Shown: positions 13,812 to 59,916, counted from the first letter of the stretch. The stretch: DNA of 64,000 nt from Minisyncoccota bacterium (GCA_036261925.1 DATAJW010000013.1:22544-86543); one strand, 5' to 3'. Translations and numbers: made by a program. The notes: generated by a model from the letters alone, not told the origin.

Positions 13812-16800
13812 ATGATCAAGAAAGATGCTCGCATGACGGCACTCCGCAAGACCCTTGCGGCGTTCAACGCTGCCGTACTGATGATTACCATGGTAGCGGT
13901 CAGCTCCCCTGTCGCGATAGCGCAGGAGACGCCGACAGATACCGCACCGGCCCAGGTAGAGGGACCGGTCACGTCGGACACGACGACCGATACGGACACC
14001 GACAAGAAGGATGCGACGGAACCGGCGCAGCCTCCGGCTGACGATACGCAGCCTCCGGCAACCGATCCCGGCACCGGTACGACCGGCGATGATGCGACCA
14101 ATCCCGAGAGCGGTGACCCAGCCGCTCCTAGCGACCCTGCGGTCGATACCGTCATCAAGGATGGCGGGAACGCGGTCATGACGTTCGTGGCGCCGCTCAT
14201 GGACGCGCTCCTGCTCGCGCCAGCAGCTGCGCTCGACCCGTTCCCGAGCACGAATGCGCAGAACCAGGTGAATGGGTACCCATATGTCGAGTTCGTGAGC
14301 GCCACTACGGATAGCGTCACGCTCAATTTCGTGAATCCGAAACCGCAGACCTATTATTTCGAGTATCGAATTGATGGTCTCGTACCAAGCGGTCGTCCAT
14401 CTAATTACAATCCCTGCAAGGAGTCGGCAACGCCTCTCAACGGCGCGTGTGGCGGGGCTCGGTATATCGCGGATGACGAGATTGCCTACCCCACTCACTC
14501 GGTAGCCGGAAACCTGACGAATCAGGTCACCATCCCGGCAGGCTCCACCGTCGAGATCCGCATGACATTCGGCCCAGAGCGTAACTACGATTTCGACTGG
14601 ATAACCTTCGATGTGGCAACGCCGCCCGATACGAGCAACATCAAGTTCGTCGGCAGCCCGAAGTACGTGCGCGCGAATAACGGGGGCGACCTCGCGGCGC
14701 AGCTCGTCACGCCCGACTCGACGACCGCGGTCAACTTCTTCATCGACGGGTCGGCAACCCCGGTTGCCGGTACGCTGCATGGGTCCGCGACGGCATCTAC
14801 CGATTGGTGGAGGCTCTACACGCCGCTTGCCCCGGGTGAGCACGCCATCACCGCGCAGGTAGAGATTGGCGGAGCCTGGTACGACGCAAGCGACACGGGA
14901 ACCGCGTATTCGCTCGATACGCCGTGGGCCCAGTACATCGTCCCGAATGCGGGACAGATGTTCCGTCCCGATGACATGGTCGTTCGGCTCAAGATCGATG
15001 ACCAGTTCGATCAGTTCAAGGAAGTCAGGGTAACGCTGAACAGCATCGTGCATACGGTACTGCGCTCCTCCTGCAATGACATCGGCGCAAGCGTATTGTG
15101 CGACCTTAAGGATCTCGGCCTCCCGGCCGGCACGTACTCCGCTTCCGCGACAATCTACACCAAGGCGAACAACCGGCTCGATAACCTGATGAGCGAGACG
15201 TTCACCATCGATGACCAGCGGCCGGTCGCGACGGGAATCCTCGTCGAGAATGCCGCACTCGGCGTCGTGACGAACACGGTGGTCGTATCGGCGAACGCGA
15301 CCGATGACCATGGCGTAGAGAGCGTGAACTTCTATGTCACCGAGCCGCGCAACGATGGCGTATGCACCGGAAACGGGACGAAGCTCGCGAGCGAGCGCGT
15401 GCTCGCGACCGATATAGATGGGAAGTATCGCGCAACGCTCGGCGTCGCGGGCCTCGCTGGCCCCTACTGCGTCACGGCGGTCGCGCGCGATGATGCCATG
15501 AACAACAGCCAGCTCATCCATCAGAAGGTCTCCATCGAGAACGCGGTGGTCGACAACGATGCGCCGAGCGTTCCGGTCATCATCGTCCCATCCAACGGTC
15601 AGGTCTTCACTTCCGCACCGATATTGAATGACTGGACGGACTCGACGGATGCGAGCGGGATAGATAAGTACGAAGTCGAGTATGTCTATTCGGATGGGCA
15701 CACCTTCAGCGGAGGCCCCTACCGCGAGACGGCAGGGAACGTGAGCCAGCGCAGCCATGCGCCAGGAGTGAGTGAACAGGGCGGCGTCACTATCCGCGTG
15801 CGCGCATACGATAATGCCGGCAACGTTAGCGGCTGGAGCGAGCCCGTCTTCTATGTGTACGACCAGGACGGTACCTATGTGAGCCGCATCATCTCGCCAG
15901 CTGATAGCGAAACCGTAAGTGGAGCGTCGTCTCTCACCGCGTTCTATGCGGACGAGAACGGCGACAATAACGACGGCGTGCAGTGGGCGGTCAGGAGCGG
16001 CGCGAGCTGCACCAACACGTCAGGTACGGTCTTCGGCAATGTCGACGGCCGCCATGACGCCGCTACCTGGGACCACGAGAACTTCGAGGCCTCGATCGAT
16101 ACTACGGCCATCGCGAACGGCGAGTACTGCTTCGTCTTCAATCCGACCGAGGATGCGGGCGACGCGAACCAGCGCCTGACGCGCGTCTTCTCGGTCCTTA
16201 ACGACGACAGCGTCCCGACGGTACCGGGCACCGAGACCATCACGGTCACCGGCACGACGGCATCCGGCGAGAACGATATCGGCGGTTGGTTCTTCAACCG
16301 CGACGCCTCGACGCAGTCCCCGTACGCATTCGCGACCGGTAACGCAAGCATCGGCTCGGGCAGCCTCTACGTCGAGCCGATCGAGAACGACATCAACGGC
16401 GATAGCGACAAGTTCATCGGCGAGCTCTTCCTCCAGAAGGCGCTCTCGGAGATCAACGGCATCTCGTTCGACTTCAAGATCGGCGCACCCGATGATACCG
16501 TCGCGGAGCAGTTCTACATGAACGTATACGCGACCTTCGGCGCATCGAGCGATACGAAGTACTACGATTGCCGGTACGATATCGTCGCGTCCTCCGGTTC
16601 GACCGCGGGCTACTCGACGGTCTCCTTCGATCCTAACGCTACCTACGCCCTCGTGACGCAATCGGGCAGCTCGCCGAGCGCCTGCCCGCAGAAGCCGTCC
16701 GACATGGGCGCTGGCGCGAAGGTGCGCGCCATCGCGCTTACGGTCGGGGACCAGAGCGACAACGACGCGGGCGTAAGCGGGTATCTCGATAACGTCATCG

Positions 16801-17291
16801 TGGATACCGATTCCATGGTCACGACGTATGACTTCGAGGCAGTTTCGGTTCCGGCAACCGTATCGCGCGGTAACGGCGGCGGAGGCGGTTCCGCCCGCGC
16901 TGCAGCGGCGAGCGCGGATGACGGCGACGATGAGGATGGCCGCGTGCTCGGCGCCTCGACGGACGCCGCCTGCAGCCCGCTCATCACGACGTTCATGGGC
17001 TTCGGCCGTCCGAACGATGCGGGCGAGGTGGGCCTCCTCCAGGACTTCCTCAATGCCCAGGCAGGCGCTGGCCTCCCGGTCACTGGCTTCTTCGGCGCGA
17101 TGACCCAGTCGGCGGTGCATGCGTACCAGAAGGCGCACTGGCAGGAGATCCTCCAGCCATGGTTCAGCGTGCCGGGTTCGGGCATCGCGGACGCGGACGA
17201 CTCGACCGGCTTCGTCGGCAAGATGACGCAGTGGAAGGTGAACATGACTCACTGCCCGGAGCTCGACCTTCCGACGCCAGAGCTCCCATAA
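13812..17291 (+). CDS. Giant secreted/surface protein (1159 aa) with C-terminal peptidoglycan-binding domain
   Basis: signal peptide; acidic T/P/D-rich linker; beta-rich repeats; C-terminal GEVGLLQDFLNAQAGAGLPVTGFFGAMTQSAVHAYQ resembles PG_binding_1. Confidence 0.7.
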   Translation: MIKKDARMTALRKTLAAFNAAVLMITMVAVSSPVAIAQETPTDTAPAQVEGPVTSDTTTDTDTDKKDATEPAQPPADDTQPPATDPGTGTTGDDATNPESGDPAAPSDPAVDTVIKDGGNAVMTFVAPLMDALLLAPAAALDPFPSTNAQNQVNGYPYVEFVSATTDSVTLNFVNPKPQTYYFEYRIDGLVPSGRPSNYNPCKESATPLNGACGGARYIADDEIAYPTHSVAGNLTNQVTIPAGSTVEIRMTFGPERNYDFDWITFDVATPPDTSNIKFVGSPKYVRANNGGDLAAQLVTPDSTTAVNFFIDGSATPVAGTLHGSATASTDWWRLYTPLAPGEHAITAQVEIGGAWYDASDTGTAYSLDTPWAQYIVPNAGQMFRPDDMVVRLKIDDQFDQFKEVRVTLNSIVHTVLRSSCNDIGASVLCDLKDLGLPAGTYSASATIYTKANNRLDNLMSETFTIDDQRPVATGILVENAALGVVTNTVVVSANATDDHGVESVNFYVTEPRNDGVCTGNGTKLASERVLATDIDGKYRATLGVAGLAGPYCVTAVARDDAMNNSQLIHQKVSIENAVVDNDAPSVPVIIVPSNGQVFTSAPILNDWTDSTDASGIDKYEVEYVYSDGHTFSGGPYRETAGNVSQRSHAPGVSEQGGVTIRVRAYDNAGNVSGWSEPVFYVYDQDGTYVSRIISPADSETVSGASSLTAFYADENGDNNDGVQWAVRSGASCTNTSGTVFGNVDGRHDAATWDHENFEASIDTTAIANGEYCFVFNPTEDAGDANQRLTRVFSVLNDDSVPTVPGTETITVTGTTASGENDIGGWFFNRDASTQSPYAFATGNASIGSGSLYVEPIENDINGDSDKFIGELFLQKALSEINGISFDFKIGAPDDTVAEQFYMNVYATFGASSDTKYYDCRYDIVASSGSTAGYSTVSFDPNATYALVTQSGSSPSACPQKPSDMGAGAKVRAIALTVGDQSDNDAGVSGYLDNVIVDTDSMVTTYDFEAVSVPATVSRGNGGGGGSARAAAASADDGDDEDGRVLGASTDAACSPLITTFMGFGRPNDAGEVGLLQDFLNAQAGAGLPVTGFFGAMTQSAVHAYQKAHWQEILQPWFSVPGSGIADADDSTGFVGKMTQWKVNMTHCPELDLPTPELP

Positions 17292-17302
17292 GGGACGCGT
17301 GA

Positions 17303-17335
17303 TACCGCAAAAACCGCGCCACACGGCGCGGTTTT
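17303..17335 (+). terminator. intrinsic terminator (AAAAACCGCGCCACACGGCGCGGTTTTTGT)
   Basis: stem plus T tract directly after the giant ORF. Confidence 0.75.
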
Positions 17336-17376
17336 TGTCTATACAGCGGGAGCTCCCGGTGCTATACTGCCTTCCG

Positions 17377-18408
17377 ATGGAAACGCCCCACCACGAGCGG
17401 CATCCGGCACGGCACGTCCTCGGGACGGCCGGCCTCATCGCGTTGACGCTCGCCGCGGTCGCGACGCTCGGCGCCGCGACGTTCTACGCGCGCACGTACC
17501 TCACCTCGACGCAGATGGCTGCGGTCATCTCCGCGGTTCTCGTCGACCTCGCGAACGACGACCGCACCGATGCCGCCCTGCCGGCGCTCACGGTGAATCC
17601 GAAACTGGTCGCCGCTGCGCAGGCAAAGGCGGACGATATGGCGGCGAAGAGCTACTTCGCGCATACGTCGCCCGATGGCACGACTTCGTGGCAGTGGTTC
17701 AAGGACGCGGGGTACGCGTACGCATCGGCGGGCGAGAATCTCGCGGTCGATTTCAACGATTCGGAGAACGTCGAGCGGGCGTGGATGGATTCGCCGACGC
17801 ACCGCGCGAATATCTTGAGCGGGAAGTTCACGGAGATCGGCATCGCGACCGCGGTCGGCGAGCTCGACGGCAAGCGCACGGTCTTCGTCGTGCAGATGTT
17901 CGGGAGGCCGGCCGCATCCCCGCTCCCGGTGCCGGTCGCGGCGGTCACGCCGCCCGCGCCGGAGGAGATAGCCATCGCCGCGGACGAGCCGGACGACGTG
18001 CTCGGCTCTACCGACGAAGCGCCGCACGCCGCGCTCATCGAGGATGAGGGGCTCGCCGCAGCCGTCGAGGGGGTCGCGGCACCGACGGCGCCTGAAGAAG
18101 CCGTCGCGCCGGCCGCCGAATCCGGCATGCCGCTGGTGGCGCCGGTCGCCGCACGCCACGCTCCCGTCTGGGGACTGGTCGCGGCCTCTCCGGAGCGCGC
18201 GCTCCGCGGCATCTATATCGCCTTCGCGTTCCTGCTGCTCGGCGCGCTCCTCATGATCACGCGCGTGGAGTTCAGGAAGCATCATTTCCGGCATGTCGCC
18301 GCCGCGAGCATCGCGCTCGTGATGCTGGGCGGGCTCTTCTTCGTCGCCGATACGTTCGTCTTCCCGGCGCCCGCCATCGGCCAGGCGGTCGCCTCGAGCA
18401 ATGGATAG
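17377..18408 (+). CDS. CAP/SCP/PR-1-like extracellular domain protein with C-terminal TM anchor
   Basis: YFAHTSPDG...GENLA...SPTHRANIL CAP motifs; start moved to the Met after the upstream terminator; TATACT 8 nt upstream of the ATG. Confidence 0.6.
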   Translation: METPHHERHPARHVLGTAGLIALTLAAVATLGAATFYARTYLTSTQMAAVISAVLVDLANDDRTDAALPALTVNPKLVAAAQAKADDMAAKSYFAHTSPDGTTSWQWFKDAGYAYASAGENLAVDFNDSENVERAWMDSPTHRANILSGKFTEIGIATAVGELDGKRTVFVVQMFGRPAASPLPVPVAAVTPPAPEEIAIAADEPDDVLGSTDEAPHAALIEDEGLAAAVEGVAAPTAPEEAVAPAAESGMPLVAPVAARHAPVWGLVAASPERALRGIYIAFAFLLLGALLMITRVEFRKHHFRHVAAASIALVMLGGLFFVADTFVFPAPAIGQAVASSNG

Positions 18409-18898
18409 GAAGCGCGCCATCGACCGGCGGGCGGCGATCGGCGCGGTCGCGCTCCTCGCGGTCCTTATCGTCTCGTCCTTCCTGTACCGGCAGGCGACCG
18501 CGCCATCGGTCGCGGAAGACGCATCCGTTCCGGCGCGCGCCGGAAACGCGCTCCCGTCCTCGATCGAGGTCGCCGATACGGAGGCGCTCCGCGAGCAGGG
18601 TCTCTCGGCCCGCGATTCGCTCGGCGACGACAGCGGCATGCTCTTCGTATTCCCGGCGTCCGGCCTCCACGGCTTCTGGATGAAGGATATGCGCTTCTCT
18701 ATCGACATGCTCTGGCTCGACGACGCGGGCGCCATCGTGCATGTCGTCTCGAACGCCGCGCCCGAGACGTATCCGGAGATCTTCACGCCGCCCGCGCCCG
18801 CGCGCTACGTGCTCGAGGTGCCGGCCGGCTACACTGCGCGGCGAGGGTGGGGGATCGGGACCGTGCTCGATTTGGGAGCGTACCAGGAAGAGAACTAG
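18401..18898 (+). CDS. DUF192 domain protein
   Basis: MLFVFP...FWMKDMRFSIDMLWLD conserved DUF192 core. Confidence 0.65.
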   Translation: MDRKRAIDRRAAIGAVALLAVLIVSSFLYRQATAPSVAEDASVPARAGNALPSSIEVADTEALREQGLSARDSLGDDSGMLFVFPASGLHGFWMKDMRFSIDMLWLDDAGAIVHVVSNAAPETYPEIFTPPAPARYVLEVPAGYTARRGWGIGTVLDLGAYQEEN

Positions 18899-19546: not shown

Positions 19547-19552
19547 TGCAGC

Positions 19553-19997
19553 ATGGACCGGTCGATAAGCCGAATTCTGTAGCGCGCGCCCGCTACGGCA
19601 CGCACCGACGACCATCTATCTGGGACTGCTGTCGCCAGCAGCCTCGAGCGGCGCTCAACCTTGTGCGGAGCAGAAGGGAGCCCTCGACCACGCACCATTC
19701 CCGAAGGGAATTCCTATTTGGAAATTGGTGCTTGGAATGTGGAGCTTCCTTATGCTCCGCATAAGGTGCACGGCCTTGCACAGCGGTAAGGGTTTAGCCG
19801 TTTCAGTCGTACGTCGCCGTACGCCCGCTCTCAAGGAGAGCTCCTTCACCTTTCGGCTCCGGACGTTTCTGTTCGCACCTCGCGCCTCGCGGCGGGCAGG
19901 CGTTACCTGCTACCAGACTGCCCTCGCTTCAGCGTGGGCCTGTGTTCGGACTTTCCTCCATCGCCCGAAGGCGACAGCGGTCGTCTGACCGGTCCGG
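19553..19997 (-). ncRNA. rnpB: RNase P RNA (bacterial type A)
   Basis: reverse complement contains GGAGGAAAGTCCG (P4 5' strand), GGTAGCAGGTAACGCCTGCC, and ACAGAATTCGGCTTATCGACCGGTC (P4 3' strand and P1); P1 GGACCGGTC/GACCGGTCC. Confidence 0.8.
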
Positions 19998-53918: not shown

Positions 53919-53976
53919 GCAGCAGGGGTGTTGATGCACGGGCCGCCCGGAGGGCGGCCCGTGCTATTTTTAAGGC

Positions 53977-54507
53977 ATGCGATTCAGCGACCCGCAGGGA
54001 AACGTGCTGCAGCTCGGGCTGACCGAAGGCATGAAGGTCGGCGACCTCGGCGCAGGCTCCGGCCATTACGCGGTGGCGGCCGCAGGCATCGTAGGTAGCG
54101 CGGGCCATGTCTATGCCGTCGATATTCAGGAGGACGTGCTGAAGCACGTCCGGGATTTCGCGAGCGAGCGCGGCATGCGCAACGTCTCGACCATCTGGGG
54201 CAACTTCGAGCGCGTCGGCGGCACCACGCTCAAGGACCAGGCGCTCGACGCCGTCATCCTCTCGAATACGCTGTTCCAGCTCGACCACCGCGAGGGCGCG
54301 CTCGCCGAGATCAAGCGCATCCTGAAGCCCGGCGGACGGCTGCTCGTCGTCGATTGGGCGGGTGCCTACGGCGGCATGGGGCCGCTCCCGCACCGCGTCG
54401 TGCCCGAGCATGCGGCGGAGGAGCTGTTCATCACCAGCGGCTTCCACAAGCTGAAGGCATTTCGCGGCGGGCCGCACCATTATTCCCTGGTGTTTACGGC
54501 CCCATAG
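53977..54507 (+). CDS. Class I SAM-dependent methyltransferase
   Basis: DLGAGSGHYA motif I, VDIQ motif II, ILKPGGRLLVVDW. Confidence 0.7.
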   Translation: MRFSDPQGNVLQLGLTEGMKVGDLGAGSGHYAVAAAGIVGSAGHVYAVDIQEDVLKHVRDFASERGMRNVSTIWGNFERVGGTTLKDQALDAVILSNTLFQLDHREGALAEIKRILKPGGRLLVVDWAGAYGGMGPLPHRVVPEHAAEELFITSGFHKLKAFRGGPHHYSLVFTAP

Positions 54508-54539
54508 CGGAACCGGGAAAATCGACTAACCTAAGACGT

Positions 54540-55847
54540 ATGAGCGAAATGAAACCGTTCCAGATAATCCTGCTCTCGGTCTTCGGACTGGTGGCGCTCC
54601 TCGGCCTGTTCCTGTTCGCGAACTTCCAGGGCTTCGGCCGCAACGCGGATGCGGTGGGCACGGTAACCATCTGGGGCACGCTGCCGCAGCGCTCGTTCGA
54701 CGCGACGCTCAATGAACTCAAGGATGCCCGCAAGGAATACGCGAACGTCAGCTACGTCGAGCGCCAGGCATCGACCTTCAACGCCGACCTGGCGGACGCC
54801 ATCGCGTCAGGCTCGGGGCCCGACCTCATCCTCATTTCCCAGGAGGAGCTGGTCGGCGAAGTGACCCGGCTGACGCTCGTGCCGTACTCCTCCATCTCCG
54901 AGCGTACCTTCCGCGACTCGTACCTGCCGGTATTCGAGCTCTTCCTCACGAGCGGAGGTACGTACGGCATCCCGTTCGCGGTCGACCCGCTCATGCTGTT
55001 CTACAACCGTACGCTGCTCGCGACCGCGGGCGCCGCCCGCCCGCCCGCTACCTGGGAGGCGGTCACTGGCCTCTCGCCCGCGATAACGCGCGCGACCGAT
55101 GCGCAGACGGTCACCCGCAGCCTCGTGCCGCTCGGCACCTACCAGAACGTCACGAACGCGCGCGCTATCCTCTCGCTGCTGTTCTTCCAGTCCGGCAACG
55201 GCGTCTCCGGCGGCTCGCTCGAAGGCGGCCTCTCCTCGACGCTCGCCGCGAGCGGGAGCGAGAGCTACGGCTCCACGCCGGTCGAATCCGCGCTCAACTT
55301 CTATACGGAGTTCGCGAATCCGGCGAAGACGACCTACACCTGGAATCGCTCGCTGCCCGAGTCCCGCCAGATGTTCCTCACCGGCGACCTCGCGCTCTAT
55401 CCCGGATTCGCATCCGAGCAGCGCGCGCTCGCGAGCGCGAACCCGAACCTCGATTTCGATATGGCGCCGATGCCGCAGCCGGGGACGGCAACGGTACGCA
55501 CCGCATATGCCCGCGCGTACGCGTTCGCGCTGCCGAAGGCGTCCCGGAACACGTCGGGCGCGTACGAGGTAGCGCTCGCGCTCGCCGGGAAGGGCGTCAA
55601 CGCCGCGTTCGCCCGCTCGCTCGGCATGGCGCCTGCCTCCCGCGCCGATCTCACGCCGTCGAACGCGAGCATCTTCGAGCCGGTCTTCTATCCGGAGGCG
55701 CTGACCGCAAAGGGCTGGCTATCCCCACTGCCGGGGCGAACCGATGCGATATTCGCGGCTATGATAGATAACGTGAACAGCGGCCGGCAGAGCGTGAAGC
55801 AGGCGCTCTCGACCGCCGACCAGGCGCTTACCGCCGCTTTCCGCTAA
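54540..55847 (+). CDS. membrane-anchored extracellular solute-binding-protein-like protein
   Basis: N-terminal TM then an SBP_bac_1-like alpha/beta domain; start moved to MSEMKPF. Confidence 0.45.
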   Translation: MSEMKPFQIILLSVFGLVALLGLFLFANFQGFGRNADAVGTVTIWGTLPQRSFDATLNELKDARKEYANVSYVERQASTFNADLADAIASGSGPDLILISQEELVGEVTRLTLVPYSSISERTFRDSYLPVFELFLTSGGTYGIPFAVDPLMLFYNRTLLATAGAARPPATWEAVTGLSPAITRATDAQTVTRSLVPLGTYQNVTNARAILSLLFFQSGNGVSGGSLEGGLSSTLAASGSESYGSTPVESALNFYTEFANPAKTTYTWNRSLPESRQMFLTGDLALYPGFASEQRALASANPNLDFDMAPMPQPGTATVRTAYARAYAFALPKASRNTSGAYEVALALAGKGVNAAFARSLGMAPASRADLTPSNASIFEPVFYPEALTAKGWLSPLPGRTDAIFAAMIDNVNSGRQSVKQALSTADQALTAAFR

Positions 55848-55849
55848 CC

Positions 55850-56434
55850 ATGACCCGACTCCATTCGTTCCGCGCGCTTCTCGTCCTCGGCATGCTCGCG
55901 TTCTCCTTCGCGGCGCCTATGCCCGTGGCGTATGCCGCCGACCAATGCAACCCATCGAGCCCGAGCTCATGTCCGAGCGGGCAGCAGTGCAAGAAAGTGA
56001 ACGATGAAGACGCGACATGCGTCGCTATCGAATGCACGCCTGCCTGCAAATCCACGGAAGTCTGCTTCCTCGGCAATACCTGCATTGCGAAGTCGAGCAC
56101 TACCAATCCCGGCGGGACCGAGGGAACTACTAATCCTGGCGGAACCCAGGGAACCGCAAATTCTGGCGCAGGCAGACTCCAGAACCCGCTCAATAATATA
56201 AATAGCATAGACGATCTGCTCGGCGCGGTTCTCGGCGCGGTCGTGCGCATCGGCTCCATCATCCTCGTGCTCGCGCTCGTCTATATCGGCTTCCTCTTCG
56301 TCGTCGCCCAAGGGAACGAGGAAAAGCTCAAGAGCGCTCGGACCGCGCTTCTTTGGACGGTGATTGGCGGTCTCATCCTGCTTGGCGCCACGGCGATAAA
56401 GGAGGTCATAACCGCGACCGTGGACGCGCTATGA
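55850..56434 (+). CDS. Pilin-like two-TM protein paralog 1 (TrbC/VirB2-like core) with N-terminal Cys-rich secreted domain and TNPGGT repeats
   Basis: signal peptide; 10 Cys in about 50 aa; C-terminal core homologous to the four downstream ORFs. Confidence 0.6.
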   Translation: MTRLHSFRALLVLGMLAFSFAAPMPVAYAADQCNPSSPSSCPSGQQCKKVNDEDATCVAIECTPACKSTEVCFLGNTCIAKSSTTNPGGTEGTTNPGGTQGTANSGAGRLQNPLNNINSIDDLLGAVLGAVVRIGSIILVLALVYIGFLFVVAQGNEEKLKSARTALLWTVIGGLILLGATAIKEVITATVDAL

Positions 56435-56901
56435 TGCCGCGTACGTTCATCGCGCTGCTCTTCATCGCTGGCCTGTCCGGCGCGTCCCCGGTTCCTGCGC
56501 TCGCCCAGACCTGCACCCCTGGCTGCGGGTCAGGGACGATATGCGCGTACACCAATCTCGCGGAGACGCAGACGGGATGCATCATCGCCGCCCAGGATGA
56601 CGGAACGGTCGATGAGGTCGTCGTGGAGGCGGCGGGAGGCGGCTCCGGCCGCTCGTTCGCGGAGTTCGTATATGACGTAATCGTACCGCTCTTCAATGAC
56701 GGCATCATCCCGCTCCTGTATGCGCTCGCCTTCCTCTTCTTCCTCATCGGCGTCGTTCGGTACTTCTTCCTCGAGAGCGAGGAGAACCGCGAGAAAGGCA
56801 AGGGCATGATGCTCTGGGGCATCATCGGCCTCGCGGTCATATTCTCGGTCTGGGGGCTGGTGCAGCTCCTCCTCGCCACGTTCTCGCTCGGTAGCGCATA
56901 G
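56431..56901 (+). CDS. Pilin-like two-TM protein paralog 2 with N-terminal Cys-containing domain
   Basis: core IIPLLYALAFLFFLIGVVRYFFLESEENREKGKGMMLWGIIGLAVIFSVWGLVQLL. Confidence 0.6.
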   Translation: MMPRTFIALLFIAGLSGASPVPALAQTCTPGCGSGTICAYTNLAETQTGCIIAAQDDGTVDEVVVEAAGGGSGRSFAEFVYDVIVPLFNDGIIPLLYALAFLFFLIGVVRYFFLESEENREKGKGMMLWGIIGLAVIFSVWGLVQLLLATFSLGSA

Positions 56902-56928
56902 CACTTATTCCCTAATCACCATTCCGTC

Positions 56929-57360
56929 ATGCCTCCTTCGAACCAAGCTCCAAGCACGCTGCAGGGATTCTTCCCCTGGATCATCGCGTTCATCGATACG
57001 TATATCGTGCCGCTCATCTTCGCGCTCGCGTTCGTCGTCTTCCTCTGGGGCGTCTTCCAGTACTTCATCGCCGGAGGCGCCGATGAGGAGAAGCGGGAAA
57101 AAGGAAAGAGATTCGTCGCGTACGGACTGGTCGGTTTCTTCGTGATGGTGTCGGTCTGGGGCCTCGTGAACTTGCTGGTCGGCTCGTTCGGCTTCAATAA
57201 GTCCGCGCCGCCGGTGCCGCGCTTCGGCGCGCCTTCGAGCGCCAATCCTGCGCCGAACACGCCTACCGGCACGTCAGGCATCTCATGCCAGACGGCATTC
57301 GATTGCGGCGGTCTCGCCTGCCTGAACGGCTTCTGCGCATCGAGCAACGGGAACAACTGA
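56929..57360 (+). CDS. Pilin-like two-TM protein paralog 3 with C-terminal Cys-rich tail
   Basis: core IVPLIFALAFVVFLWGVFQYFIAGGADEEKREKGKRFVAYGLVGFFVMVSVWGLVNLL; tail CQTAFDCGGLACLNGFC. Confidence 0.6.
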   Translation: MPPSNQAPSTLQGFFPWIIAFIDTYIVPLIFALAFVVFLWGVFQYFIAGGADEEKREKGKRFVAYGLVGFFVMVSVWGLVNLLVGSFGFNKSAPPVPRFGAPSSANPAPNTPTGTSGISCQTAFDCGGLACLNGFCASSNGNN

Positions 57361-57453
57361 TAGCTGATAGCCGTTTTCCACATGCGGCCAAGGCCTCTAT
57401 TGACGGGCTGCCGTGGCGTTCTATCCTATAGGAGTACTTAGTAATCACTATCT

Positions 57454-57816
57454 ATGAAGAAACTCGGTTATATCGGTGCGGCCCTCGCGCTCCCGTTCCT
57501 CGCATTCGCGCAGACCATCAATGGCCAGAGCGGCCTCGGCGGCCTCGGCCAGAGCCTCATCGCCTTTATCAATACGATCGTCGTGCCGCTCATCTTCGCG
57601 CTCGCGTTCATCGTCTTCATCTGGGGCGTCTTCCAGTACTTCATCGCTGGCGGGCACGACGAGGAGAAGAAGGAGAAGGGCAAGAGCCTCATGCTCTACG
57701 GCCTCATCGGTTTCTTCGTGATGGTATCGGTTTGGGGCCTCGTGAACATCCTCACGGGTACCTTCAATCTCCGCGACACGCCGCCGCCGTACCCTGACGT
57801 ACCGGTCAACAACTAG
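57454..57816 (+). CDS. Pilin-like two-TM protein paralog 4
   Basis: signal peptide plus core nearly identical to paralog 3. Confidence 0.6.
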   Translation: MKKLGYIGAALALPFLAFAQTINGQSGLGGLGQSLIAFINTIVVPLIFALAFIVFIWGVFQYFIAGGHDEEKKEKGKSLMLYGLIGFFVMVSVWGLVNILTGTFNLRDTPPPYPDVPVNN

Positions 57817-57875
57817 GCGCAGTTCTCCACCAGAGGAAGCCGCCCGTTCGGGCGGCTTCTTGCTATGATACGGAT

Positions 57876-58133
57876 ATGGATAAGCTCAATGAGTTCATAA
57901 CGAACGTGGAGCGGGAGATACTCACCCCGATAGTCACCCTCCTCGCCCTGTTCGCGTTCGCGGTCTTCGTCTGGGGCATCGTGCAGTTCATCGCGAACGC
58001 GGGCGATGAGGAGAAACGCAAGACCGGCCAGATGCACATGTTCTGGGGCATCATCGGCCTCGTCATCATATTCGGCGCGAACGCCATAATACGGCTCATG
58101 GCGAATACGGTGGGTGCGGACGTTCCGTTCTAG
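57876..58133 (+). CDS. Pilin-like two-TM protein paralog 5 (core only, 85 aa)
   Basis: core ILTPIVTLLALFAFAVFVWGIVQFIANAGDEEKRKTGQMHMFWGIIGLVIIFGANAII. Confidence 0.55.
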   Translation: MDKLNEFITNVEREILTPIVTLLALFAFAVFVWGIVQFIANAGDEEKRKTGQMHMFWGIIGLVIIFGANAIIRLMANTVGADVPF

Positions 58134-58139
58134 CAACCA

Positions 58140-58180
58140 TAAGAAAAGCCCCGCATGAGAATGCGGGGCTTTGAAAGATC
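58140..58180. terminator. bidirectional terminator AAAAGCCCCGCATGAGAATGCGGGGCTTT
   Basis: stem flanked by A and T runs. Confidence 0.8.
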
Positions 58181-58195
58181 AGGTACCGATGCTTG

Positions 58196-58708
58196 CTACT
58201 CGGAATCCGCGGCTTCGGCTTGCGCCCTCGCTGCATGTTCCGGTTCGAAGCGGATGAGGAGCTTCTTCGGGCTCGAGTCGAGCGATTGGTAGAGCTCGGC
58301 CGTGCCGCCATTCGGACAGCTGTCTTGAATGGCTCCGAAGAGGTCCTTGCATCGGATACGGACGCCGTCGGTGTTATTCCGGAATATGGTGTATCCGGGA
58401 CGGATCCTGGCTTCGTATTCGGTCGTGCCGGCCGCCGGCGCCGTCACCACCTGCCACTCCGGGGAGGGCAGGGATTCTGGCGCGGTTGCTGCCGGTATCG
58501 TCGCGGTCGTCTGCGTACTGCGCGCAGCTTCGACCTGTCCAGGCTCTTTCGAGCCATGTACGAGATGCTTGCCTCCGACCCAGTCGATCAAGAAGAAGAT
58601 CGCTCCGACGGCCGCGAAAAGCAGGCCGATTCGTAAGGCCCACTTCTTCATTCCTTCGGTCGAACCTCCGGAACCATGCTTGGAGCCAGATGAAGCGCCA
58701 TGAGCCAT
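58196..58708 (-). CDS. membrane-anchored protein, possibly NfeD-like partner of the SPFH protein
   Basis: N-terminal TM, beta-rich C-terminus; 12 nt from the upstream SPFH gene. Confidence 0.35.
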   Translation of the reverse strand: MAHGASSGSKHGSGGSTEGMKKWALRIGLLFAAVGAIFFLIDWVGGKHLVHGSKEPGQVEAARSTQTTATIPAATAPESLPSPEWQVVTAPAAGTTEYEARIRPGYTIFRNNTDGVRIRCKDLFGAIQDSCPNGGTAELYQSLDSSPKKLLIRFEPEHAARAQAEAADSE

Positions 58709-58719
58709 GTTGAGTTCCT

Positions 58720-59916
58720 CTAGTCCTTGTTGTTGGTGAAGATAGCGGCCGCGTCGACAAGCGGATTGCCGCTTCTGACGATGGTCTCTTTGGCTCGGCC
58801 ACGGTTGATGCGGACAAGCTCAAGCGCGCGCTCCAAGGAGAGCGTTTCTCCTCGGCTGGTGGCGTCGGCAATATATGCCCTCGCCAGCTCGAGCTCGGTA
58901 TCGAAGTCCTTCCTTTCCGCTCGACGCTGCGCGTCTTCGCGGGCGGACAATTCGGCGTCTGCGCCGAGCGCGCTGCTCGGTTCGATGCGGACGACGTTGA
59001 GGCGGGTGATCTGGATGCCCAGGTCGACCACATCCCCGACGCCGTTCTCGCGAACGATGCGCAGGAAGACCTCCATTTCCCGTTGCCGGTTATGCAAGTC
59101 ATCTTTCGGGGCGGCATGGATATACCGCAACGGCTCGTCGATGGCGGGCAGCAGCCTATACTTATCGGGTGCGATTGCGAAATCCTCTTCCGCTATCTTG
59201 CCGTCCGTACGAGGCAGTGTACGCAACTTCGCGTCGCTGACCATCATCAAGAGGCTCGCCGCGAGCGGCGCCTTGAGGAAAACGAATTCCTCCCAGGTAT
59301 AGTCGCTCGCGAACACACGCGTCTCTTCGCCGATGATGTCGCAGAGGATCTTCTTGACCCCCTCCTCGCCGCCGGAGTTGAGATACTTGATGATGCGATC
59401 GGCGTCGACATCCTCGCCGCCGTGCAGGCCATCAGCATCGGGCTCGATGGTAATGGCCACTTCGACGGTGACTGCAGCGCCGGCAGCGGCCGTATCCGAT
59501 CCGGTATTCGCGCGGCATCGGACATCTTCATAGGTGAAGTTCCTGTTCATCCGCTCGACTTTGACCGGATTCACTCCCACCATGAAGGGGAAGTACGGGG
59601 CGAGCAGATGCGTCCCTTCCGGAATGAGGACGCGGATGCGCCTATTCCAGAACGTGAGGATGCCCTTATGCGGCGGATCCTCGGGAACGCGCACGAACCC
59701 GAACGCGATCATCAGCGCACCGATAGCGCCGATAGCCGCGAAGTACCGCGGGCCGACGAGAAGGTAGTAGGTGCCGAGCAGGATGAAGCCGATAGCGCTT
59801 GCCCAAAGGATCGTCGTGATCCTTTGGAGAAATGCACGGTCGACTATTACCGCCACCAGCATCGCCACCTGAATGGCTAGCCAGAGCTTGAGTACCAGAG
59901 GCATAGCGCCCTCCAA
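58720..59916 (-). CDS. SPFH/band-7 (stomatin/prohibitin-like) domain protein
   Basis: N-terminal 2 TM, SPFH core (GILTFWNRRIRVLIPEGTHLLAPYFPFMVGV...), C-terminal coiled coil. Confidence 0.5.
   Translation of the reverse strand: MEGAMPLVLKLWLAIQVAMLVAVIVDRAFLQRITTILWASAIGFILLGTYYLLVGPRYFAAIGAIGALMIAFGFVRVPEDPPHKGILTFWNRRIRVLIPEGTHLLAPYFPFMVGVNPVKVERMNRNFTYEDVRCRANTGSDTAAAGAAVTVEVAITIEPDADGLHGGEDVDADRIIKYLNSGGEEGVKKILCDIIGEETRVFASDYTWEEFVFLKAPLAASLLMMVSDAKLRTLPRTDGKIAEEDFAIAPDKYRLLPAIDEPLRYIHAAPKDDLHNRQREMEVFLRIVRENGVGDVVDLGIQITRLNVVRIEPSSALGADAELSAREDAQRRAERKDFDTELELARAYIADATSRGETLSLERALELVRINRGRAKETIVRSGNPLVDAAAIFTNNKD

Follow-up and report, generated by a model that had tools for sequence, protein, structure and literature searches.

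We analyzed a 64,000-nt stretch of a Minisyncoccota bacterium genome (GCA_036261925.1, DATAJW010000013.1:22544-86543; hereafter the window) and describe an array of five consecutive same-strand open reading frames (ORFs) at 55850-58133 (+), found by ORF calling and named W1-W5. All five encoded small membrane proteins matching Pfam PF18895 (T4SS_pilin), and we consider it probable that they together make up the VirB2-like pilins of a type IV secretion system (T4SS) in Paceibacteria, as subunits of a filament or conduit. The locus is already annotated and well conserved: W1-W5 correspond to consecutive GenBank entries HEX2792412.1-HEX2792416.1 of a Candidatus Paceibacterota metagenome-assembled genome, each named "pilin" and with W4 100% identical to its entry, and the array phenomenon itself has been published (PMC12102498, PMC10633639). 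We did not find in the literature the order of five orthologous groups, a candidate major subunit, the fusion of the array to genes for a solute-binding protein (SBP) homologue and a methyltransferase away from virB4, or the similarity to a pilin-like protein of mycoplasma integrative and conjugative elements (ICEs).

A large fraction of bacterial diversity belongs to the Patescibacteria, which depend on host cells, and Paceibacteria is their largest class. A pilus in a monoderm T4SS would, to our knowledge, be unprecedented. The T4SS and its pilin array were essential in the one patescibacterial species tested. The locus described here sharpens the picture for Paceibacteria, with five non-interchangeable components in a fixed order, a W4 that resembles a major subunit, three members with fast-changing modules predicted to face outward, and an SBP/methyltransferase linkage far from virB4. 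These leads can be tested by researchers of epibiont-host contact, and they weigh against the "antigenic variation" reading of such arrays.

Architecture and family membership of the array

ORF calls, alignment, and hydropathy agreed with the earlier note, a first reading of the same DNA, that five same-strand ORFs share a two-helix core. The position-1 pilin W1 (55850-56434, +) has 194 aa and always comes first in the array. W2 (56431-56901, +; position 2) has 156 aa when counted from its ATG, with the mechanical ORF opening earlier at a TTG at 56353. W3 (56929-57360, +; position 3) has 143 aa, and W4 (57454-57816, +; position 4), the candidate major subunit, has 120 aa. The minimal position-5 pilin W5 (57876-58133, +), which is always last, has 85 aa and consists of the core only. 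The genes had been described as overlapping or abutting, and W1 and W2 do overlap (ATGA), but they are the sole such pair, with gaps of 27, 93, and 59 nt following in order. Codon-position GC in the W1-W5 frames (third position, GC3, 0.72-0.87; second position, GC2, 0.33-0.50) indicated coding sequence and identified the opposite-strand ORFs as shadows.

The core shared by W1-W5 comprised a hydrophobic helix, a short charged loop (DEEK.EKGK), and a second hydrophobic helix. Pairwise identity among the paralogs was 17-40%, except for W3-W4 at 62%. The similarity of the cores was far above chance, since a single Pfam family scored all five above its gathering score and direct DNA repeats connected the pilin cores, those of W3 and W4 having 83% nucleotide identity across 196 nt.

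The earlier note had allowed for proteins with no similarity to any pilin family, and a hidden Markov model (HMM) comparison with pilin models gave the opposite result. Whole-protein scores against PF18895 were 27.6 (W1), 43.4 (W2), 43.6 (W3), 44.4 (W4), and 49.5 bits (W5), all above the gathering score of 26.6 bits, and on these profile matches membership of the five proteins in this family is near certain. W4 had ~1500 homologues, of which the best 120 were 60-85% identical, and nearly all homologues carried a precomputed PF18895 label. Among 26 W1-type proteins scanned singly, PF18895 was found in every one and TrbC at E ≤ 0.01 in 25 (best 1.1e-6), which makes position 1 a bridge to the classical VirB2 family. 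Judged by these scores, the W1 subfamily is the most TrbC-like, with a relationship to TrbC that is real but remote. The earlier designation of the array as TrbC/VirB2-type pilins was therefore right as a statement of homology (PF18895 in 5/5, TrbC in 25/26 W1-type proteins), which does not extend to strict membership of PF04956.

All five proteins also matched NCBIfam NF045849, the Mbov_0395 family of pilin-like conjugal transfer proteins from mycoplasma ICEs (E 4e-10 to 2e-5). None reached its cut-off of 40 bits (W5 39.2, W4 33.5, W1 29.0, W2 24.1, W3 23.9), and W4 and W5 resembled NF045849 more than TrbC. The mycoplasma proteins (Mbov_0395/MMCAP2_0565) are alike in size at about 80 aa, in their two-helix core, and in having a monoderm host, but they are encoded by a single gene on a mobile element rather than by a five-gene chromosomal array. 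We found no literature specific to the Mbov_0395 family. The similarity hints that VirB2-like proteins may occur in MPF-FATA-type systems of monoderms, pilin-less according to the literature, and it bears on whether monoderm-type T4SSs ancestrally possessed such proteins.

Around the core, each position had its own architecture. A hydropathy scan gave a signal-like segment plus two transmembrane helices for W1, W2, and W4 and the two transmembrane helices only for W3 and W5; signal peptides were called by inspection, as an N-terminal hydrophobic segment followed by an AxA-type site. W1 had a putative cleavage site AYA/A, a Cys-rich ectodomain, the TNPGGTEGT/TNPGGTQGT repeat linker, a conserved NPL motif, and the helical hairpin. 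The predicted signal peptide and the repeat were as previously described, and the Cys count was 8 rather than 10. W2 had a putative cleavage site ALA/Q, a 4-Cys module (QTCTPGCGSGTICAY...), and the two-helix core, in agreement with the earlier description. W3 lacked a signal peptide, though many of its orthologs have one, and continued from the core into a (R)P.LP.F-type motif and the expected C-terminal Cys tail, which had 4 Cys and not 5. W4, with a putative cleavage site AFA/Q, the core, and a conserved P.YP.AP proline-rich tail free of Cys, and W5, with the two-helix core alone and no signal peptide, were as the earlier note had them.

Every Cys lay in a segment predicted to be outside, in even numbers (8 in W1, 4 in W2, 4 in W3). 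The predicted topology has both termini and the add-ons extracellular and the DEEK.EKGK loop cytoplasmic, and this placement of the N- and C-terminal add-ons fits the even Cys counts and a role in surface display. A helical hairpin, with a short polar loop connecting two long hydrophobic helices, was recovered both by hydropathy and in the AlphaFold2 models of W1 and W4. The W4 model (mean pLDDT 74) had helices at residues 28-65 and 70-103. That of W1 (mean pLDDT 72) had strands at 45-80, a linker at 84-103 with pLDDT < 50, and helices at 120-152 and 157-193; its Cys module was modeled with moderate confidence as a small beta-hairpin (residues about 31-80) adjoining the disordered repeat linker.

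Positional orthology across relatives

A scan of one genome per species for relatives of W4 returned 80 loci, all from Patescibacteria. Together with the window and an additional locus, L001, these made 82 loci in which an iterated HMM found 428 pilin ORFs. The array occupied the same chromosomal site across the 80 related species. Pilins were on a single strand in every locus, with five genes in 46/82 and six in 27/82. When each pilin was assigned to its closest window paralog, the order was W1-W2-W3-W4-W5 in 35 loci, a W1 type came first and a W5 type last in essentially all loci not cut by a contig end, and the W5 position was kept in all 46 five-gene loci. For 225 of the 230 pilins in these 46 loci, the best non-self match was the pilin at the same position of another genome, and it was never a paralog from the same genome. 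These positional matches define five ancient orthologous groups in a fixed order. The earlier note had read the array as diversifying paralogs with shuffled modules in a rapidly evolving family, a description for the most part contradicted by the orthologous groups (225/230), the fixed site, and purifying selection (below); only the add-ons of positions 1-3 varied. The array gave no sign of recent duplication or gene conversion. Such an event between W3 and W4, which might be considered from their 83% nucleotide identity, was rejected because each best matched its own position in other genomes.

The sixth pilin of the 27 six-gene loci was usually an extra W4-like gene in mid-array, giving orders such as W1 W2 W3 W4 W4 W5 or W1 W4 W4 W4 W4 W5. 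The middle positions tolerate changes in copy number and the ends do not.

The closest relative, used for identity and for the ratio of nonsynonymous to synonymous substitution rates (dN/dS), was a Logan contig (L082). Amino acid identity to its orthologs was 94% for the upstream methyltransferase, 88% for the SBP homologue, 96% for W4, 86% for W5, 78% for W2, 73% for W3, and 72% for W1. Although the methyltransferases were 94% identical, the W1 alignment contained a 43-residue gap that took out the entire 8-Cys module. Nei-Gojobori dN/dS on aligned codons was 0.05-0.2, indicating purifying selection, though these values are rough and weak as a test of positive selection because dS was near saturation for several genes and 0.8-2.4 for most pairs. 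W4 had both the lowest dN (0.02) and the lowest dS (0.45) of the nine genes compared, with a dN/dS of 0.045. It was the most conserved gene of the neighborhood, and had its own promoter-like site and a hairpin following it.

Variation among the 35 colinear loci differed by position. Position 1 always had a signal peptide and a low-complexity G/T/S/P linker, with at least 4 Cys in only 10/35. A CxPxCGxGxxC module was present at position 2 in 4/35; the W2-type Cys module was homologous in L016, L019, L042, L082, and L083 and absent from most other relatives. At position 3 the (R)P.LP.F-type motif was conserved and the tail beyond it variable, with at least 4 Cys in 9/35. L003 and L082 had tails homologous to that of W3, and L083 had a replacement. 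Positions 4 and 5 were of constant length and contained no Cys. In these alignments, fast turnover is confined to the add-ons and tails of positions 1-3 that are predicted to face outward, where modules are gained and lost and, being homologous where present, do not arise afresh in each lineage.

Operon-like linkage, proposed assembly, and alternatives

Two genes preceded the array on the same strand, both as the earlier note had identified them. A small class I S-adenosylmethionine-dependent methyltransferase (53977-54507, +; 176 aa; Pfam Methyltransf_31/11/25; HEX2792410.1, methyltransferase domain protein) was followed by a membrane-anchored, orphan family-1 (MalE-like) SBP homologue (54540-55847, +; 435 aa; SBP_bac_8, E 4.5e-16; HEX2792411.1, extracellular solute-binding protein) with distant maltose/sugar SBP matches in the PDB. 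The stop codon of the SBP gene was 2 nt ahead of the W1 start codon. Its ortholog lay directly upstream of the first pilin in 77/82 loci and ended -25 to +55 nt from the pilin start in 74 of them, the stop and start codons usually overlapping or nearly so. In 74/82 loci the methyltransferase ortholog kept a constant upstream spacing of ~1300 nt from the first pilin. The SBP homologue had a fixed length of ~434 aa and was 55-69% identical across the clade (the homologues listed were same-clade proteins with at least 54% identity), and no ABC permease or ATPase adjoined it in the window or in the neighborhoods of L001, L082, and L083. Four of the five loci without the SBP had the array at a contig edge. 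The fifth, L070 (9917-10692), had only two pilin genes, no SBP or methyltransferase neighbor, and an F-type ATP synthase alpha/beta subunit ~2 kb away.

A strong terminator-like hairpin with a T-run at 53936-53964 (+; 13 pairs, 12 of them GC, tail TATTTTT; -31.7 kcal/mol, z -4.6) closes the gene upstream of the methyltransferase, so the operon-like unit of methyltransferase, SBP homologue, and pilins spans 53977-58133. The array is fused to the SBP and methyltransferase genes, an arrangement that PMC12102498 does not mention. The gene order of the surroundings was conserved as well: gyrA lay farther upstream at a variable distance in 66 loci, rbfA and infB lay downstream on the other strand in 47 loci, and the region from a beta-lactamase-fold gene through gyrA to infB was syntenic in the clade. 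SBP adjacency may accordingly reflect general conservation of gene order.

Within the array, the 93-nt gap 5' of W4 contained a candidate sigma-70-like promoter (57400-57427, +; TTGACG-16-TATCCT, 9/12 consensus matches), and directly 3' of W4 was a GC-rich hairpin (57834-57861, +; 12-bp stem, weak U-tract; -24.2 kcal/mol, z -2.4) that could be an attenuator, a terminator, or an mRNA stabilizer. With this hairpin after W4 and the promoter-like site before it, the array is unlikely to be transcribed as a single simple unit. The tail of the hairpin (57860-57878) reads TGCTATGAT, an extended -10-like motif; as this ends 6 nt 5' of the W5 ATG, W5 might come from a nearly leaderless transcript. None of W1-W5 had an obvious Shine-Dalgarno sequence at normal spacing. 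The array ended, as the earlier note had said, at a strong bidirectional terminator-like hairpin (58145-58172; -23.7 kcal/mol, z -6.0, with 0/200 shuffles as stable) placed between it and the convergent downstream gene.

The nearest published counterparts are the patescibacterial VirB2 arrays, of which 441 with 2-11 pilin genes and a mean within-array identity of 25% were found in 383 Patescibacteria assemblies using PF18895 and PF04956 (Quinonero-Coronel et al. 2025, PMC12102498). Five consecutive genes fall under the definition of such an array, at least two pilin genes in tandem or with one non-pilin gene between them. The window array has PF18895, the phylum, and tandem same-strand genes in common with these arrays, including the prototype from Ca. 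Southlakia epibionticum ML1 (PMC10633639) and the "Sec-secreted array" of TM7x. Its size of five is within the published range, its paralog identities of mostly 17-40% compare with the published mean, and Sec signal peptides, here as predicted, occur on some members in both. The window array differs in belonging to the class Paceibacteria, whereas published arrays are most abundant in Microgenomatia and Saccharimonadia, in its W3-W4 identity of 62%, which exceeds the published maximum of 54%, and in having no virB4 within 64 kb, whereas the Southlakia array is inside a T4SS cluster. The fixed order of five orthologous groups also goes unmentioned in PMC12102498.

Comparison with the TrbC/VirB2 pilins of Gram-negative T4SSs (PF04956) showed likeness in the predicted signal peptide, the two-helix hairpin, the short polar loop, and the TrbC matches of the W1 subfamily. 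In contrast to these, the host of the window array is a monoderm without an outer membrane, no VirB3, VirB4, or VirB6 adjoins the array, and it encodes five distinct subunits, some with Cys-rich ectodomains or tails, rather than one major pilin plus VirB5. The VirB2 paralogs of the virulence T4SSs of Bartonella and Anaplasma phagocytophilum are likewise several divergent genes in a row, with a proposed role in surface variation or host interaction (cited in PMC12102498). Those arrays are thought to supply interchangeable variants, while the window copies are fixed, position-specific orthologous groups.

The assembly model that we propose, whose chances we regard as about evenly balanced, begins with insertion of each pilin into the cytoplasmic membrane as a helical hairpin by Sec or YidC. 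W1, W2, and W4 would use a cleavable Sec signal peptide, and W3 and W5, with their short N-termini, would insert without one. The subunits would then be extracted by a VirB4-type ATPase machine, encoded at another genomic site, and polymerized into a filament, or into a conduit spanning the envelope or wall, at the contact with the host cell of the epibiont. The five subunits would be ancient distinct components and not interchangeable variants, with W4 as the major (bulk) structural subunit, W5 as a minimal core subunit, and W1-W3 as minor subunits whose add-ons may display lineage-specific, probably disulfide-stabilized surfaces that serve in adhesion or in recognizing the host. Co-transcription with the array is proposed for the SBP homologue and the methyltransferase, which are likely accessory factors.

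Published data on patescibacterial T4SSs favor the model. VirB4 was present in 2,417/3,035 Patescibacteria genomes, and in Paceibacteria virB4 is usually near dnaA/dnaN (PMC12102498), which makes the array a separate locus. Such separation agrees with the 813/1,948 assemblies in which pilins were not near virB4 (PMC12102498). Transposon sequencing showed the six-pilin array of Southlakia epibionticum, located in its T4SS cluster, to be essential (Wang et al. 2023, PMC10633639), and patescibacterial systems have been described as unique among monoderm T4SSs in their potential to make a pilus (2025 review, PMC12857230).

Several results weigh against a pilin set of a T4SS. A scan of every sizeable gene in the 64-kb window, which covers part of a 93,362-bp contig, found no VirB4, VirD4, VirB6, or other T4SS component, extending the earlier note's remark that the window has no T4SS ATPase. 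In the 80 relatives, clusters of large ORFs lying up to 10 kb from the array likewise included no VirB3, VirB4, or VirB6. For this search, ORFs of at least 380 aa from 81 loci (the 80 species and L001) were clustered and ten unexplained representatives were scanned; these were ATP synthase, pyruvate phosphate dikinase, DNA polymerase III alpha, a tRNA synthetase, a PriA-like protein, or of no family, and none was VirB4 or VirD4. With no T4SS gene found near the array, the link to a T4SS comes from the family name and the literature rather than from this genome. The window proteins also did not reach the TrbC/VirB2 (PF04956) gathering score of 27.9 bits, W1 and W5 scoring 17.8 bits (E 0.004) and W2-W4 having no match. 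Fold searches returned only generic helical hairpins with no solved pilin among the top matches, a comparison that says little, as hundreds of unrelated coiled coils resemble any two-helix hairpin, and PDB sequence searches with profiles of W4 and W1 orthologs found nothing. A pilus of such proteins has not been observed in any patescibacterium (PMC12857230), and for Saccharibacteria, the only group tested, the literature calls what the T4SS does completely unknown (PMC11665869). The suggested division into a major W4 and minor W1-W3 draws on conservation and weak signal matches only.

The five proteins might instead be T4SS components that build no extended pilus, lining a short membrane- or wall-embedded channel or acting as an assembly scaffold, as may hold for the mycoplasma ICE pilin-like protein. 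We think this unlikely, though it would explain the NF045849 matches in all five, W5 coming within a bit of the cut-off (39.2 vs 40) and far above its TrbC score. Patescibacterial VirB4 moreover falls inside MPF-FATA, a monoderm class in which the known systems have no pili (PMC12102498), in keeping with the failure to observe one. The NF045849 matches are nonetheless all below the cut-off, and a surface-exposed structure is the better fit for a set of five conserved, distinct subunits of which three have sizeable outward domains and linkers. A T4SS-independent envelope module, in which the pilin-like proteins form, for example, a pore or scaffold cooperating with the anchored MalE-like protein in capture of host glycans, is more doubtful still. 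It would account for the SBP abutting the first pilin in 77/82 loci, for an orphan SBP with no ABC permease or ATPase nearby, for the lack of T4SS genes among large ORFs within 10 kb in the 80 relatives, and for weak sub-threshold matches of W5 to small transporter subunits such as DctQ. Family-1 SBPs are known to work with ABC importers, however, and not with two-helix proteins; the DctQ-type matches are typical noise from hydrophobic composition, clade-wide synteny offers another reason for the SBP-pilin adjacency, and all five proteins pass T4SS_pilin while the W1 subfamily matches TrbC. A further reading is improbable in our view: the methyltransferase, the MalE-like protein, and the five pilins could be one dedicated, so far unrecognized machine, at a distance from a VirB4 cluster or without one, in which the anchored SBP docks on or primes a five-component filament or conduit taking up host-derived glycans or other molecules, and the methyltransferase modifies the cytoplasmic DEEK.EKGK loop, a segment that in the assembled structure would form the lining of the lumen. 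If true, this would give the first concrete mechanistic handle on the purpose of patescibacterial T4SS pilins.

Two further explanations bear on the array as a gene family. Alternative major pilins for antigenic or host-range variation have been proposed for Bartonella and Anaplasma and suggested for Patescibacteria (PMC12102498), and the low paralog identity of 17-40%, near the published array average of 25%, and the variability of surface-exposed parts are as expected for them. We nevertheless judge this very improbable here, given that each position is a separate orthologous group in the same order in at least 46 species with no best match in its own genome. This orthology, the position-specific architectures, and purifying selection in the aligned regions together argue for non-redundant roles rather than an interchangeable pool. 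The five could also be read as unrelated membrane proteins of the holin or bacteriocin-immunity kind, which are typically small as well and have two transmembrane helices and a charged loop. That reading was rejected and is effectively refuted: significant matches were to a pilin family, with none to holin or immunity families in Pfam or NCBIfam, the window contained no phage, lysis, or bacteriocin genes and the neighbors were housekeeping genes, and in 80 species the array belongs to the conserved core of the chromosome. Holins do not feature cleavable signal peptides or large ectodomains.

Downstream flank and remaining window

Downstream of the array, two genes at 58196-59916 (-) had been taken for an SPFH/NfeD-like pair, an assignment for which we found no Pfam match at E ≤ 0.001 in the window. 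Band_7 is found in the genes at the corresponding position of L001 and L082. The downstream window protein was 55% identical to that of L083, which has no Pfam match on record, and only 25% identical to that of L082, so that orthology with the Band_7 gene is not established. Compared with the array, the downstream flank evolves far more quickly.

The rest of the window was housekeeping in character, with genes for GroEL, RNase J, LepA, MurJ, an aminoacyl-tRNA synthetase, TsaD, Sua5, FtsZ, FtsA, Pth, S1, GyrA, Alr, RbfA, and IF-2, along with RNase P RNA and 11 tRNAs. A region at 13812-18898 encoded a 1159-aa protein with weak peptidoglycan-binding and bacterial Ig matches, followed by a CAP/cysteine-rich secretory family protein (369 aa) and a DUF192 protein; judging by these domain matches, it is possibly a cell-surface or host-interaction cluster. 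G+C was 57-69% across the window, which is high for Patescibacteria. This high G+C gave rise to long spurious opposite-strand ORFs over nearly every gene, which are not to be taken as genes. The RNase P RNA at 19550-19996 (-) was of bacterial class A and scored only 117 bits against a cut-off of 100; this score and the length of 447 nt, compared with a 367-position model, suggest sizeable insertions or divergence.

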